Shown: positions 8,536 to 12,500 of the stretch, in pieces
How positions within the stretch are numbered: the first letter of the stretch is position 1
Layout of the letters: each line of letters opens with the position of its first letter
Origin: Candidatus Poribacteria bacterium
Lineage (GTDB): Bacteria > Poribacteria > WGA-4E > WGA-3G
NCBI GenBank assembly: GCA_963663765.2
Contig: CAXXUA010000013.1
Span: forward strand, 480,001-544,000
Length of the DNA: 64,000 bases
Direction of reading: 5' to 3'
Notes under the pieces: generated by a model
The model's input: only the letters and a program-made list of their open reading frames with translations
Databases searched by the model: none
What the model was told of the DNA's origin: nothing
Position numbers and translations under genes: made by a program

Positions 8536-9693
8536 ATGCAAAAAACTTTACTCTCAATATGTTTAAGTCTAATGATATTTGCGAATATTGGATGTGATAA
8601 CGTAATAAAGGTACTAGATTCCGCTAGAACTGAACCCACTATAAAGATCGGTTTCGTCGTCGCTGGTGAACGCATTTCATATCCCAATGGAGCTGAAATG
8701 GCTGTCACAGAAATCAACGAAAAAGGCGGACTGCTTGGGATGCGTGTTGAATTAATCGGGCATATCAACAATGAAGCAATATTGGATGTCTCAGTGCAAC
8801 TCGCGGAATCGTTGATCCTTGAAGACGGTGTTGTTGCTCTAATAGGACCAAACCGTTCTTCACACGCAGCAGTCGTCGGTCCTATAGCACAGAAGCATCG
8901 GATACCAATGGTCACTACAACCGCAACAAATCCGAATGTGACAAATGCTGGTGATTTTGTATTTATGGCATCCTTCACCGATAGTTTTCAAGGCGCAGTC
9001 ATGGCACAATTCGCAAAGAATGAACTCGGTATCTCAAACGCCGCTCTCATCACACGTAGTGGTGACCTATATACTGAAGGCATATCTGAATTTTTTGAAT
9101 CCAACTTTTTATCACTCGGTGGGAACGTGGTTGCACATGTGTTCTTTGATGGCGGAACTCTTGATTATACACAACACTTGATGCAAATCGCTGACTTACT
9201 ACCTGAGGCACTCTTCACTGCAGGATTTGTTCAAGACATTGCCAGCATCACGCAACAAGCACGTGTTGTGCCATTGCTAAACGCTGTTGGGGCACCGACA
9301 ATCTTCCTCGGTGCAGATTCATGGGACAGCACATTGTTGTTTGACGACGAAAATGCTGAAATTGAAGGCAGCTTCTTTAGTGGACATTTTTCACCTGAAA
9401 CGGATGAACCGAACGCACGTGCTTTTGTTGAAACCTACGAAGCCATCTATGAATCTACGCCAACTGGTGGTGTCGCAGTCAGTTACGATGCTGTCAAATT
9501 GCTAATTGAAGCCATAGAACGTGCTGAAAGTTTGGACCCAGAGATTATACGCGATGAACTTGCTGCTACCAAAAACTATGTCGGAGCAACAAGTATCTCC
9601 AGCTATAACGAAAACCGTCATCCCACCAAAAGTGCAGTTATTTTCACTATCAAAAACGGTGAAAAAAAGTTCTATAAGCAAATTCATCCTTAG
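8536..9693 (+). CDS. LivJ-like (type 1 periplasmic binding) ABC substrate-binding lipoprotein
   Basis: Lipobox-like NIGC; GAEMAVTEINEKGGLLG; FTDSFQG; YDAVKLL. Confidence 0.88.
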   Translation: MQKTLLSICLSLMIFANIGCDNVIKVLDSARTEPTIKIGFVVAGERISYPNGAEMAVTEINEKGGLLGMRVELIGHINNEAILDVSVQLAESLILEDGVVALIGPNRSSHAAVVGPIAQKHRIPMVTTTATNPNVTNAGDFVFMASFTDSFQGAVMAQFAKNELGISNAALITRSGDLYTEGISEFFESNFLSLGGNVVAHVFFDGGTLDYTQHLMQIADLLPEALFTAGFVQDIASITQQARVVPLLNAVGAPTIFLGADSWDSTLLFDDENAEIEGSFFSGHFSPETDEPNARAFVETYEAIYESTPTGGVAVSYDAVKLLIEAIERAESLDPEIIRDELAATKNYVGATSISSYNENRHPTKSAVIFTIKNGEKKFYKQIHP

Positions 9694-9742
9694 AATTTGC
9701 TCATAGAGGTAGAGTGACAGTATCTAAATATCTACATATTTC

Positions 9743-9771
9743 TTGACATTCCTTGATATTTATGTGATACT
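9743..9771 (+). promoter_or_regulatory. Sigma70-type promoter giving a probably leaderless tnpA transcript
   Basis: TTGACA (9743-9748), 17-nt spacer, TGn-GATACT (9766-9771); tnpA ATG lies 7 nt after the -10 with no SD. Confidence 0.6.
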
Positions 9772-9777
9772 ATATAC

Positions 9778-10365
9778 ATGACTTATGTATCAGCGCGCAA
9801 AGCAATTGAGCTGCTGGATTATACACCTGACCATTTACGGAGGTTGGCAAATGAAGGAAAGATTGATATTATCCGCACAGGAGGCGGACACAGACGCTAT
9901 GATGTTGACGGATACATCAAAAGCAAATCCAAATCAATTGCAACTGTTTGCTACTGCAGAGTATCCAGCACAAAGCAAAGAGAAGACCTTGAACGACAAG
10001 TTGAATATATGCGAAGTATCTACCCCGAAGCAGAAGTTATCCGAGACATCGGAAGCGGAATCAACTTCAAAAGAAAAGGGCTTAGAACCTTATTGGAACG
10101 GCTTATGCAAGGTGATAAGCTCAAAGTTGTTATTGCCCATCGGGATAGACTCGCCCGCTTCGGTATCGACCTTATACAATACCTCATTGAACAAAACGGT
10201 GGCGAACTCGTGGTTCTCGATCAAACAGAACACAGTCCGCAAGAAGAACTCACGTCGGATCTTCTCGCAATCCTGCACGTCTTCAGTTACAGAATGCACG
10301 GACTCCGAAGTTACCGTGACAAAATCAAAGAAGATAAGAGTTTATCCGACAACAGAACAATGTGA
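9778..10365 (+). CDS. tnpA: IS607 transposase TnpA (MerR-type HTH + serine recombinase)
   Basis: RTGGGHRRYD HTH; YCRVSS catalytic Ser; DIGSGINFKRKGL; HRDRLARFG. Confidence 0.95.
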   Translation: MTYVSARKAIELLDYTPDHLRRLANEGKIDIIRTGGGHRRYDVDGYIKSKSKSIATVCYCRVSSTKQREDLERQVEYMRSIYPEAEVIRDIGSGINFKRKGLRTLLERLMQGDKLKVVIAHRDRLARFGIDLIQYLIEQNGGELVVLDQTEHSPQEELTSDLLAILHVFSYRMHGLRSYRDKIKEDKSLSDNRTM

Positions 10366-11434
10366 AACACTGCGTCAGTGGTTTGGCACAGCACGTTTTA
10401 CTTATAATAAAACAATTGCTTTGTTGAACGAAACAGACACAAAAGCGAATTGGAAAGCGATAAAAACAGGTATTCTTCACGATCTTCCTGATTGGAGCAA
10501 AGAAACACCGTATCAAGTGAAATCTGTTGCTATCCGTGACGCTTGTATTGCTGTCCGAGAAGCAAAGCGAAAATGCAAGAAAACAGGTCAATATCAGTCT
10601 GTTTTTTTCAAATCCAAACGTCATCCATCAGATAGTATTTTCATACCAAAGTCTGCTATAAAACCTCGCGGTGTTTATCACACAGTGCTTGGTGATCTCA
10701 AAATGTCAGAGATGTTACCTGATAATATCTGTGACTCACGCCTCGTGAAAGAGAATGATAAATACTATCTCTGTGTTTCCTATACTGTGACAACTCCGAA
10801 GCGAAAACCAAACGGAAGTGTTGTTGCTTTAGACCCTGGCGTGAGAACATTCCTCACATATTTCCATGAGCGTGGTTTCGGATGGCTTGGACACCATGCT
10901 ATCAATCGGATTCAAAGACTTTGTTCATACCTTGATAATCTTTTATCCCGTGCAATAAAAGCGACACAACAATCACGCAAGAATATGAGACGTGCTGCAA
11001 ATCGCATCAGAAAACGTATCAGATATCTTGTTGACGAGTTGCATCATAAAATAGCACGTTTCCTTGTGGATACCTTTGATATTATCCTACTCCCTACTTT
11101 TGAGACTTCAGATATGGTAATGCGTGGAAACCGCAAACTACACAAGAAGTCTGCCCGACAAATGTTGACACTGTCGCACTACAGATTCAAACATTTTCTA
11201 AAGCACAAAGCGAAAGAGACTGGATGTCTCGTCATTGATGTCTGTGAAGCATACACATCAAAAACAGTTTCGTGGAATGGTGAGATTAGAAAATCACTCG
11301 GTGGACGAAAGATAATAAAAGATAGCATGGGACTCAAGATGGACAGAGACTTGAATGGCGCACGCGGGATATTTTTGCGTGCTTTGGTAGATGAACCCTG
11401 GTTGCTTTCTATAAGCAACTTGCAAACCGTATAA
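9851..11434 (+). CDS. tnpB: IS607 TnpB RNA-guided nuclease, Fanzor-like RuvC arrangement; start uncertain (ATG 9851 with SD, or GTG 10316)
   Basis: KKIRVYPT..Q...LRQWFGTARFTYN; ALDPGVRTF; IILLP; CEAYTSKT; DRDLNGARGI. Confidence 0.9.
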   Translation: MKERLILSAQEADTDAMMLTDTSKANPNQLQLFATAEYPAQSKEKTLNDKLNICEVSTPKQKLSETSEAESTSKEKGLEPYWNGLCKVISSKLLLPIGIDSPASVSTLYNTSLNKTVANSWFSIKQNTVRKKNSRRIFSQSCTSSVTECTDSEVTVTKSKKIRVYPTTEQCETLRQWFGTARFTYNKTIALLNETDTKANWKAIKTGILHDLPDWSKETPYQVKSVAIRDACIAVREAKRKCKKTGQYQSVFFKSKRHPSDSIFIPKSAIKPRGVYHTVLGDLKMSEMLPDNICDSRLVKENDKYYLCVSYTVTTPKRKPNGSVVALDPGVRTFLTYFHERGFGWLGHHAINRIQRLCSYLDNLLSRAIKATQQSRKNMRRAANRIRKRIRYLVDELHHKIARFLVDTFDIILLPTFETSDMVMRGNRKLHKKSARQMLTLSHYRFKHFLKHKAKETGCLVIDVCEAYTSKTVSWNGEIRKSLGGRKIIKDSMGLKMDRDLNGARGIFLRALVDEPWLLSISNLQTV

Positions 11435-11495
11435 GATGTGAAATGCACAGCATTGCACGGAAATATACAGGTTAATATCATCGGTAGGAGTAAAC

Positions 11496-12500
11496 ATGAA
11501 TAGACCACCAGAAGAGTTTGTAAATGTAACAGAAAACCGACTGTTTAAGTTCAGCACCACATGCTTTGAAAAAGCAGGTCTCACCCATGAACACGCGGCA
11601 CTCATTAGCCGTTTGCTTGTGAATTCCGACTTACGCGGTGTCCGTAGCCACGGCACGCGCACAGTCAACGGCTACTGTAACGGATTTGAAAACGGAAGTC
11701 TCAATCCAAATCCCAATGTCACTGTCATCCATGAAACACCCACTGCTGTTGTTCTTAATGGTGATGGCACACTCGGTTACCTTCCAATGGTCCGTGCGAC
11801 TGAACGTGCTATCATAAAGGCAAAAAAGGTCGGTATCGGGATGGGACTCGTACGTTATATAGGACACTACGGTTCCGCAGGCCATTATGCACGACTCTGT
11901 AATGAAGCGGGTTGCATCGGTTTTTCAGTACAAGGCTATCAGAACCACGGCAACGCTGGAAATAGTGACAATAAACCACAACTCGGATATTATGGTAACC
12001 CACCGATATGTTTTGCAATAACATCAGGTGACGAACCTCCTGTCGTACTTGACGCAGCGACTTGCATCATGGCAGACTACCAACGCGGACCGGAATTTGA
12101 TGAACTACTTTCAATGATCCCAGCAGCATTCTTTAAGAGTATCGGTTATACCGCTGTGGCGTGCCTACTCGGCGGCGCATTAACTGGCTTCACCGAACCC
12201 GCACCAGAAGAAACCGCAAAATGGAGCGGTGTGCGTCATGGCGGCATGGTACTGGCAATTCATATTGAATCTGTTGTTCCACCGGATCTCTTCCATGCCG
12301 AAGTCGATCGCTTGGTGCGCGATGTCCGACAAACCTACGAACCCTTGCCAGGAACCGATCAAGCATTTTTACCTGGTGCAATCGAAGAGGAACGAACAAA
12401 ACTACATCGACAAAACGGTATACGTTATGGTGAAATGGAACAGTCATCCGCTCGCGCTGTAAGCAAACGCCTCGGTGTTCCATTGCCTTGGGAAGAATAA
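11496..12500 (+). CDS. Ldh_2 family (type 2 malate/L-lactate/ureidoglycolate-like) oxidoreductase
   Basis: SDLRGVRSHG, GHYGSAGHYA, GNPPIC, LPG near C-terminus; SD AGGAG. Confidence 0.85.
   Translation: MNRPPEEFVNVTENRLFKFSTTCFEKAGLTHEHAALISRLLVNSDLRGVRSHGTRTVNGYCNGFENGSLNPNPNVTVIHETPTAVVLNGDGTLGYLPMVRATERAIIKAKKVGIGMGLVRYIGHYGSAGHYARLCNEAGCIGFSVQGYQNHGNAGNSDNKPQLGYYGNPPICFAITSGDEPPVVLDAATCIMADYQRGPEFDELLSMIPAAFFKSIGYTAVACLLGGALTGFTEPAPEETAKWSGVRHGGMVLAIHIESVVPPDLFHAEVDRLVRDVRQTYEPLPGTDQAFLPGAIEEERTKLHRQNGIRYGEMEQSSARAVSKRLGVPLPWEE

Follow-up and report, generated by a model that had tools for sequence, protein, structure and literature searches.

An IS607-family insertion sequence with a probable conserved dual-coding region, in which the tnpB frame of a pro-Fanzor-type nuclease runs through tnpA

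The window analyzed here is a stretch of 64,000 nucleotides from a Candidatus Poribacteria bacterium (GenBank assembly GCA_963663765.2, contig CAXXUA010000013.1, positions 480,001 to 544,000, forward strand). It contains an IS607-family insertion sequence at window positions 9710–11484 (+ strand; 1775 bp) with two genes: tnpA (9778–10365, +), which codes for an IS607-type serine recombinase of 195 amino acids, and, downstream on the same strand and in the +1 frame relative to tnpA, a long tnpB (9851–11434, +), predicted to code for a pro-Fanzor-type RNA-guided nuclease of 527 amino acids. The 515 nucleotides shared by both genes (9851–10365, +), read in frame 0 as tnpA and in frame +1 as TnpB residues 1–171, are highly likely to be a conserved dual-coding region within this known element family, judging from stop depletion and synonymous-site constraint. 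The +1 frame has been kept open to an extent that chance does not explain, in several bacterial phyla as well as in phage and giant-virus contigs; the synonymous sites of tnpA are constrained by it, and it carries near-invariant residues and persists in loci where tnpA has decayed. This dual-coding overlap is apparently undescribed in print.

Overlapping reading frames of tnpA and tnpB

The tnpA product matches NF033518 (E 1e-51) over residues 8–181 and PF00239 (E 7.5e-19) over residues 57–178, with weak MerR/HTH_17 matches at residues 5–43. An N-terminal MerR-like helix-turn-helix (HTH) thus precedes the resolvase catalytic domain, which is the inverted domain order required for the IS607 family. 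In the +1 frame, a TGA (9779–9781) overlaps the ATG of tnpA; from 9785 onwards, as in the original prediction made from the sequence alone, the frame is free of stops through tnpA and into TnpB, giving 549 codons up to the stop at 11432–11434. Recognizable TnpB homology (PF12323, NF040570) begins near residue 179 of this 549-codon frame, at about nucleotide 10319, and no Pfam match was found in the approximately 155–177 codons upstream of it, also when this extension was searched alone. Assignment of the long 527-amino-acid form was based on the list of open reading frames (ORFs) and on predicted proteins of 527 amino acids in relatives.

In order to estimate how unusual the open frame is, the codons of tnpA were shuffled. 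The +1 frame of tnpA contains a single stop, an unavoidable one formed by ATGA, versus a mean of about 7.5 in 20,000 synonymous-codon shuffles. One stop or fewer was obtained in 1 of 100,000 synonymous-codon shuffles, which preserve composition (P about 1e-5), and in 38 of 100,000 codon-order shuffles. Relatives were then fetched by their TnpA. When 101 genomes of the same bacterial family were searched with TnpA, 56 gave matches, and 30 loci with TnpA 60–100% identical were examined. The tnpB frame was +1 and open back to between −50 and +142 nucleotides of the tnpA start in 28 of them; the other two were L011, with tnpB split by an insertion, and L018, with stops in both frames. Locus L011 is the same as L133 of the sample described below (same genus), and its insertion interrupts tnpB near the beginning of the core and leaves both tnpA and the overlapping frame of the extension intact. 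A second, cross-phylum sample was obtained by a TnpA-profile scan with one genome per species, yielding 79 loci. Their titles included Poribacteria, many cyanobacteria, Dehalococcoidia/SAR202, Caldilineaceae, Pseudomonadota, Latescibacterota, Synergistales, and Syntrophorhabdus, and the loci with the closest TnpA were titled "Candidatus Poribacteria." Cyanobacterial strains represented among the fetched loci include Anabaena catenula FACHB-362, Anabaenopsis elenkinii CCIBt3563, and Nostoc sp. KVJ20. The overlap reached at least 350 nucleotides in 67 of the 79 loci, and, summed over this sample from tnpA codon 51 to the end, 6 stops were observed in the +1 frame versus 235 expected from synonymous shuffles. 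As a control, 20 canonical IS607 loci from genomes of the same family (TnpA about 40% identical) were analyzed; tnpB was again usually in the +1 frame and coded for 363–398 codons, with an open-frame overlap of just 0–148 nucleotides.

The same arrangement was present in viral contigs. A scan with the alignment of long TnpBs gave 77 loci, and tnpB was in the +1 frame in all 56 of these that had an adjacent tnpA. Where tnpA was complete, in 38 non-redundant loci, the overlap extended over 364–925 nucleotides, with 9 stops in the +1 frame observed versus 135 expected. Three loci from giant-virus metagenome-assembled genomes (MAGs; L088, L104, and L112) and two AT-rich ones (L092 and L096) code for Fanzor2-like proteins of 598–625 amino acids with CxxC zinc fingers, which overlap the full length of tnpA with approximately their first 200 residues. 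A degenerate DNA pattern for the WED motif of ApmFz2, the mimivirus Fanzor2 (TnpB-like protein L79; PDB 9B0L), gave no match in the viral contigs. Two further giant-virus MAG loci (L087 and L089) have tnpA divergent on the opposite strand, and their TnpBs match the family profile just from position 131–136; these TnpBs are without the conserved part of the extension, in loci where no co-directional tnpA exists to overlap.

Loci with a decayed tnpA were also informative. A full tnpB core was present in 53 TnpA-fetched loci; of these, both frames were intact in 39, tnpA was broken and the extension open in 11, and both were broken in one; the reverse case was seen in two, L192 and L133, the latter with its insertion-split tnpB. 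Seven loci (L136, L153, L179, L193, L202, L203, and L211), inspected by eye, contain one or two internal stops or indels in tnpA. Three others (L086 from a giant-virus MAG, L108, and L111) are without tnpA, the corresponding frame being full of stops in L086, and in L065 and L070 just a decayed remnant of tnpA is left. The P-F-W, L-W-L-P, and S-W-F motifs of the extension are retained in all five of these loci.

Synonymous sites of tnpA were compared between relatives. In deeply diverged pairs, identity at four-fold sites was 0.54–0.57 in the overlapped tnpA versus 0.34–0.35 in the non-overlapping core of tnpB. Along tnpA, synonymous third-position identity stood at a baseline of 0.42–0.45 in codons 1–45, was mildly raised (0.52–0.57) in codons 41–85, peaked at 0.86 in codons 111–125, remained at 0.74–0.78 up to codon 145, fell to 0.48 in codons 151–165, and reached 0.72–0.91 where the canonical TnpB N-terminus begins. 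The pattern recurred in 39 sequences of several phyla (baseline 0.39–0.42, peaks 0.64–0.68). The same comparison for the tnpA of the 20 canonical IS607 loci was uninformative, since amino acid identity was approximately 75–94% in most windows and the sites were unsaturated. In 69 diverse long TnpBs, W82 and L93 of the extension were invariant and P80, P96, S120, W121, and F122 were at least 90% conserved, a conservation comparable to that of the catalytic residues. At the DNA level, all 39 sequences had NTG with a following G as the tnpA Leu codon lying under W82 (NTG accounts for 45% of the other Leu codons) and GTT as the Val codon under F122, and 38 of the 39 had GCC as the Ala codon under P96. 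A profile of the extension alone (89 positions), searched against 1.84 billion representatives, retrieved 1514 protein clusters at E ≤ 1e-3 and 1008 at E ≤ 1e-10.

Some observations count against dual coding or limit the weight of these figures. A long overlap was missing in 12 of the 79 TnpA-fetched loci: in eight it was shorter than 150 nucleotides (tnpB was broken or truncated in L133 and L146 and had a frameshift in the other six), in two it was 150–349 nucleotides long, one locus was without tnpB, and one ended at the contig edge. Because the sequences are related to each other, the P-values from the shuffles and the locus counts overstate independence. The viral set is biased, as one of the two search patterns used lies inside the extension.

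The open +1 frame might be a by-product of the amino acid and codon composition of TnpA, with translation of just a TnpB of approximately 372 amino acids from near GTG 10316. GTG, TTG, and other internal starts are indeed possible from the sequence, canonical TnpBs of approximately 365–400 amino acids work without the extension (structures 8h1j, 8exa, and 8iaz align with our structural model from residues 154–156), and a model built from a shallow alignment left the extension disordered. This explanation is nevertheless very unlikely: shuffles that preserve composition almost never leave the frame as open, stops are far scarcer across the TnpA-fetched loci than expected, the constraint on tnpA synonymous sites is in register with the conserved residues of the +1 frame, the motifs of the extension outlast tnpA decay, and GTG 10316 is not preceded by a Shine-Dalgarno sequence. 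A second explanation places a nucleic-acid element (an internal promoter, an RNA structure, or transposase-binding sites) in tnpA instead of a second coding frame. A second promoter-like site at 9844–9872 speaks for it, as do the overlapping functions carried by IS607 ends and guide RNAs according to passages of bioRxiv 2023.11.20.567912. We consider it extremely unlikely, since an RNA or DNA element needs no 150–250 stop-free codons in one frame, the peaks of constraint match the invariant Trp, Pro, and Phe codons of the +1 frame, and the translated segment is recognizable among relatives at 29–35% identity, in the 1514 clusters mentioned above, and aligns with a structured domain of ApmFz2. 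Dual coding of this stretch, as proposed in the original prediction, is supported by five kinds of evidence: stop depletion, the open frame in TnpA-fetched relatives, synonymous constraint, near-invariant residues, and retention after loss of tnpA.

Start signals of the two genes

A consensus scan revealed a promoter-like site upstream of tnpA (9743–9771, +), composed of TTGACA (9743–9748), a spacer of 17 nucleotides, and a TG-extended GATACT (9766–9771), with 10 of 12 consensus positions matched. It ends 6 nucleotides before the ATG of tnpA, which is consistent with a leaderless tnpA whose mRNA would start at or next to its ATG. This agrees with the leaderless start proposed from the sequence, although a fit of this kind is not proof of it. 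The start proposed for tnpB is ATG 9851, which is preceded at 6 nucleotides by the Shine-Dalgarno-like GGAGGT (9839–9844, +); both the spacing and the frame were as originally described. In the tnpA frame, this GGAGGT falls on the Arg-Arg of the HTH motif L-R-R-L. The equivalent of ATG 9851 is the first in-frame ATG in 17 of the 30 loci of the family, and runs of the AGGAG/AGGAA type precede it in 12 of these, but not in all. At GTG 10316, no purine-rich Shine-Dalgarno-like run was found within the preceding 16 nucleotides, again in line with the original description.

In 17 of the 30 family loci (TnpA 64–93% identical), a stop occupies +67 to +69 of tnpA in the +1 frame, and 12 of these 17 have the equivalent of ATG 9851 at +73, which explains the predicted proteins of 527 amino acids in relatives. 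Five further family loci are without this ATG and have their first in-frame ATG at +76 to +124. In many loci of the 79-locus sample the frame opens at +61 and the first ATG is found at +67 to +76, so that a start at these positions recurs across phyla. A stop just upstream followed by a recurring first ATG marks an independent start, and this bears on programmed ribosomal frameshifting from tnpA into the +1 frame, which would yield a TnpA-TnpB fusion, as for OrfAB of IS1/IS3. Both frames do overlap on one strand, tnpA contains A-rich runs, and a fusion would need just part of the +1 frame to be open; frameshifting is still extremely improbable, although no search was made for slippery sites and it might give a minor product, because the shift needed would be +1 and not the common −1, an in-frame stop precedes the ATG in the family loci just described, the frame is open over almost the whole of tnpA, beyond what a single shift site needs, and the extension survives in loci without tnpA. 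Initiation from ATG 9785 was also considered, and a 549-amino-acid form was rejected as a conserved product: the frame is open with an ATG at +7 in just 3 of the 30 relatives, and the stop at +67 to +69 in 17 of 30 contradicts it as well.

The choice of ATG 9851 itself is uncertain, and ATGs 9899/9902 are the other candidates. Inside tnpA there is a second promoter-like site (9844–9872) with TTGGCA, a spacer of 17 nucleotides, and a TG-extended TATTAT, also with 10 of 12 matches. A transcript from this site would lack ATG 9851 and yet precede the conserved ATG pair 9899/9902. Deeper relatives, moreover, start at +40 to +142 of tnpA, often with an ATG at +121 or +124. 

The TnpB protein and its N-terminal extension

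The TnpB core with its WED, REC, and RuvC parts is encoded at 10316–11431 (+) and matches NF040570 (E 2.5e-39), PF12323, PF01385, and PF07282. Its RuvC-I aspartate, D328 (codon 10832–10834), lies in a DPG motif (D328-P329-G330), of which D328 and G330 are invariant and P329 is at least 90% conserved in 69 sequences. A shifted RuvC-II glutamate, E466 (11246–11248), within C-E-A-Y-T-S-K-T, is present in all 69 sequences and corresponds in the alignment to the catalytic glutamate of ApmFz2 (N-E-Y-L-T-T-K-T-C). A second glutamate is still present at the canonical RuvC-II position (F-E-T-S), and either of the two may be the catalytic one. The RuvC-III aspartate is D500 (11348–11350). While these catalytic D, E, and D are kept, the four zinc-finger cysteines are all replaced (V473, N476, D491, and M493; 11267–11331); among the 69 relatives, cysteine occurs at these four positions in 24, 16, 16, and 15 sequences, respectively. 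Members of the giant-virus type (L088, L096, L104, and L112) keep CxxC...CxxC. By its DPG motif and shifted RuvC-II glutamate, as read from these alignments, the protein is classed as a pro-Fanzor TnpB; it is a relative of Fanzor2 and not Fanzor2 itself, because its host is bacterial.

The extension ahead of this core consists of two parts. Residues 1–77 (9851–10081, +) are variable and predicted to be disordered (predicted local distance difference test score, pLDDT, of about 30), and over most of them the synonymous sites of tnpA are near baseline. Residues 78–153 (10082–10309, +) contain the motifs P80-Y-W82, L93-x-L-P96, and S120-W121-F122 and are delimited as a conserved N-terminal domain (NTD) by conservation, AlphaFold2 (AF2) modeling, and structural alignment. 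The AF2 model built with 69 sequences had a mean pLDDT of 75.6 and a predicted template modeling score (pTM) of 0.70. Residues 78–138 were folded in it as two helices (84–92 and 102–108) and a beta-hairpin (109–115 and 123–129) that carries the S-W-F motif, and this folded part coincides with the peak of synonymous constraint in tnpA.

The best sequence match in the PDB was 9b0l_P, the ApmFz2 chain, with the single sequence giving E 6e-25, the A1 profile 3.7e-47, and the A3 profile 1.1e-62. Profile alignments start at chain residues 78–81 of 9b0l, position 116 of the A3 profile falling on chain residue 78 and the S-W-F motif on S83-W84-Y85. The protein of L096 showed a weaker match to the PDB (E 3e-15), with an independent E value of 0.12 for the NTD segment. 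In structural alignments of the AF2 model (VIA-align), 9b0l ranked first (Z 27.2, root-mean-square deviation 3.6, 406 residues), with model residues 78–517 aligned to chain residues 53–518, whereas ISDra2 and ISFba1 TnpB, Cas12f, and most of the other Cas12-family entries inspected begin at model residues 146–159. The likeness of the extension to the N-termini of viral Fanzor2 proteins, which the original prediction had noted, was supported by NSWF aligning with mimivirus NSWY, by model residue 78 aligning with chain residue 53, and also by the same overlap in the giant-virus MAG loci. Passages of PMC11832414 describe ApmFz2 residues 1–53 as a nuclear localization signal (NLS) region unseen in the cryo-electron microscopy map and residues 53–130 as a structured NTD, in which RuvC-R (65–91) completes the RuvC fold and contacts the guide RNA, and a basic thumb (109–130) clasps target DNA. 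Residues 78–153 of the present TnpB are inferred from the model to be the counterpart of this Fanzor2 NTD, with RuvC-R and thumb, and residues 1–77 match in position the disordered NLS region. If residues 78–153 are such a counterpart, the extension would be a working part of the RNA-guided nuclease.

The assignment of the whole NTD is weakened by the following results. HMMER aligned just the second half of the NTD to ApmFz2 (chain residues 78–130), and the P-Y-W and L-L-L-P part is matched to ApmFz2 solely by the range of the structural alignment. Even with 69 sequences, the pLDDT of the NTD was just 62–86, with residues 1–77 and 139–150 below 50, and with 29 sequences (mean pLDDT 58.9) the whole extension was modeled as disordered (below 50).

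The element, related systems, and the origin of the overlap

Five copies of the insertion sequence are present in the genome of the window, 99–100% identical and each exactly 1775 bp long, and their junctions agree, which fixes the element limits at 9710–11484. Each left flank terminates in RRGG and the element itself in ...TCGG, so that a GG dinucleotide is found at 9708–9709, flanking the left junction, and at 11483–11484, as the final two bases of the element; GG at both junctions is a signature shared with the IS607 family. No terminal inverted repeats were noted in the five aligned copies, the ends not having been submitted to a dedicated inverted-repeat scan. Both the tnpA of 195 amino acids and the tnpB of 527 amino acids are intact in all five copies, and the element is active-looking. 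The window copy differs from the other four at two positions. At 9806, TnpA has I10 in the window copy and S in the others; at 10361, the window copy codes for TnpA M195 and TnpB C171, and the others for T and R. Since relatives have R at TnpB 171 (T-E-Q-R-E-T-L), the window copy carries the derived state there. The right end (11435–11484, +) is kept in all five copies up to ...ATCATCGG and is the predicted place of the 3' part of a guide (omega/re) RNA, a role assumed from known IS607 TnpBs as presented in passages of bioRxiv 2023.08.09.552727. A scan of 9600–11600 against Rfam gave no guide-RNA family, just chance-level matches to NsiR1 (0.18) and mir-254 (0.52). Upstream of the element, a hairpin of 15 pairs (9671–9707) overlaps the stop codon of a substrate-binding-protein gene (8536–9693) and ends 2 nucleotides before the GG of the insertion site, so the insertion sequence lies directly behind a terminator-like structure.

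Contigs from sponge metatranscriptomes were compared with 9500–11700. Contigs from four runs of two studies, with libraries labeled sponge metagenome, match the element at 95–100% identity and cover about 9711–11449, and one of 850 nucleotides spans tnpA and runs on into the tnpB core; X1 and X3 seem to be a single data set deposited twice. These contigs give no transcript start, strand, or expression level, their covered part is a multicopy element, and the uncovered flanks are uninformative. They lend weak support to transcription of the element, DNA carry-over being possible. Taken strictly, they establish no more than the presence of the element in sponge metatranscriptome libraries.

Several known systems resemble this one. 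Like mimivirus ApmFz2, the present TnpB has a DPG RuvC-I motif, a C-terminally shifted RuvC-II glutamate, and, according to the predicted structure, a putative NTD ahead of WED that is preceded by a disordered stretch; ApmFz2 is also located in an IS607-type element with TnpA, according to passages of PMC10530073. They differ in the bacterial host, in the absence of zinc-finger cysteines here, and in an overall identity of about 22%, and a 12-residue insertion before the first WED strand is present in ApmFz2 and not in this TnpB. Pro-Fanzor (TnpB2) proteins are characterized, in passages of Yoon et al. (PMC10711439) and of bioRxiv 2023.08.09.552727, by the DPG motif and a glutamate shifted to about six residues before the zinc-finger position; parts of Yoon et al. 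2023 (PMC10711439) further state that their hosts are exclusively cyanobacterial and that "many" members have a CxxC...CxxC zinc finger between RuvC-II and RuvC-III. Like the cyanobacterial pro-Fanzor IS607 elements, ours has a DPG motif, a glutamate shifted to six to seven residues ahead of the zinc-finger position, and a serine TnpA of the IS607 type encoded upstream, and the cyanobacterial loci fetched here have the same long overlap of tnpA and tnpB. It departs from the published clade in its hosts, which extend beyond cyanobacteria, and in lacking CxxC...CxxC. TnpBs with DPG and the shifted glutamate were also found under the titles Poribacteria, Dehalococcoidia/SAR202, Caldilineaceae, Pseudomonadota, Latescibacterota, Synergistales, and Syntrophorhabdus. 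The cyanobacterial host range was accordingly treated as a description, and not as a defining feature, of the pro-Fanzor clade.

With canonical IS607 elements (IS607 of H. pylori, ISXfa1, and a second IS607 group in the same genomes), the element has in common a serine TnpA with an N-terminal HTH, a downstream same-strand tnpB usually in the +1 frame, GG junctions, and no inverted repeats; unlike it, the TnpBs of those elements are without the NTD, and their overlap was just 0–148 nucleotides in the 20 loci. The TnpB of ISXfa1 has a typical active-site arrangement, according to a passage of bioRxiv 2023.08.09.552727. More generally, overprinted viral genes and the OrfA/OrfAB pair of IS1/IS3 elements yield two proteins from one DNA stretch in different frames, and in overprinted genes the younger frame is partly disordered and compositionally odd. 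In contrast with overprinted viral accessory genes, the younger frame here would be the N-terminal domain of a large conserved enzyme, and in contrast with IS1/IS3 OrfAB, independent initiation of tnpB is proposed instead of frameshifting, and the arrangement is kept across bacteria, phages, and giant viruses. Full-text searches of the published literature, which did not cover supplements, found no description of a long tnpA/tnpB dual-coding overlap, and no full-text paper pairs "overprinting" with "TnpB." The words "overlap" and "reading frame" do not occur in the main texts of PMC10711439 and PMC11832414, nor "N-terminal" in that of PMC10711439; where "overlap" occurs in Fanzor and IS607 papers, it refers to guide RNAs or transposon ends in the relevant passages (PMC10530073; bioRxiv 2023.11.20.567912).

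Based on these data, the following scheme is proposed. A single transcript starting at or next to the ATG of tnpA probably carries both ORFs. From it, tnpA would be translated as a leaderless ORF, and tnpB would be initiated 73 nucleotides downstream, at ATG 9851 behind GGAGGT, and read through the body of tnpA. In the nuclease, residues 78–153 may fold onto the rest of the protein, their RuvC-R part completing the RuvC fold and contacting the guide RNA, and their basic thumb part contacting target DNA next to the transposon-associated motif (TAM).

Regarding the origin of the overlap, the +1 frame is taken to be the younger of the two for two reasons: homologs of the TnpA catalytic domain include serine recombinases without an overlapping gene, and rearrangement cannot superimpose two pre-existing coding sequences. 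Canonical IS607 elements have just a short overlap, mostly in the +1 frame, and the NTD may have arisen by overprinting as the tnpB ORF was extended upstream through tnpA. An overprinting origin of the NTD in the transposase gene is thus very probable from sequence comparison. The idea of the original prediction that the Fanzor2 NTD came from the alternative frame of the recombinase gene gains a strong argument from this homology of TnpA to non-overlapped serine recombinases. On balance, we favor the broader proposal that an IS607 tnpA was the place in which the NTD of the entire pro-Fanzor/Fanzor2 lineage originated de novo, that TnpA and TnpB were then locked in co-evolution, and that the arrangement was carried unchanged from bacteria to phages and giant viruses, where the approximately 75 disordered residues may later have supplied the NLS.

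Fanzor and TnpB nucleases are being studied intensively, both as compact tools for genome editing and as ancestors of Cas12. The predicted NTD is present in bacterial pro-Fanzors of several phyla and, where a co-directional tnpA is present, it is encoded inside that gene in the second frame; the approximately 500 shared nucleotides offer a physical explanation for the co-evolution of TnpA and TnpB. As gene callers forbid long overlaps on the same strand, many database entries are expected to contain a truncated TnpB or no TnpA, and "minimal" pro-Fanzor constructs should include the extension. With about 170 codons and clear comparative evidence, this overlap would be among the best-supported long same-strand overlaps in bacteria. 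If the de novo birth of the NTD is true, it would be a rare documented case in cellular organisms of a structured, functionally important domain arising from overprinting, and its product would be a domain of an enzyme and not a small accessory protein.

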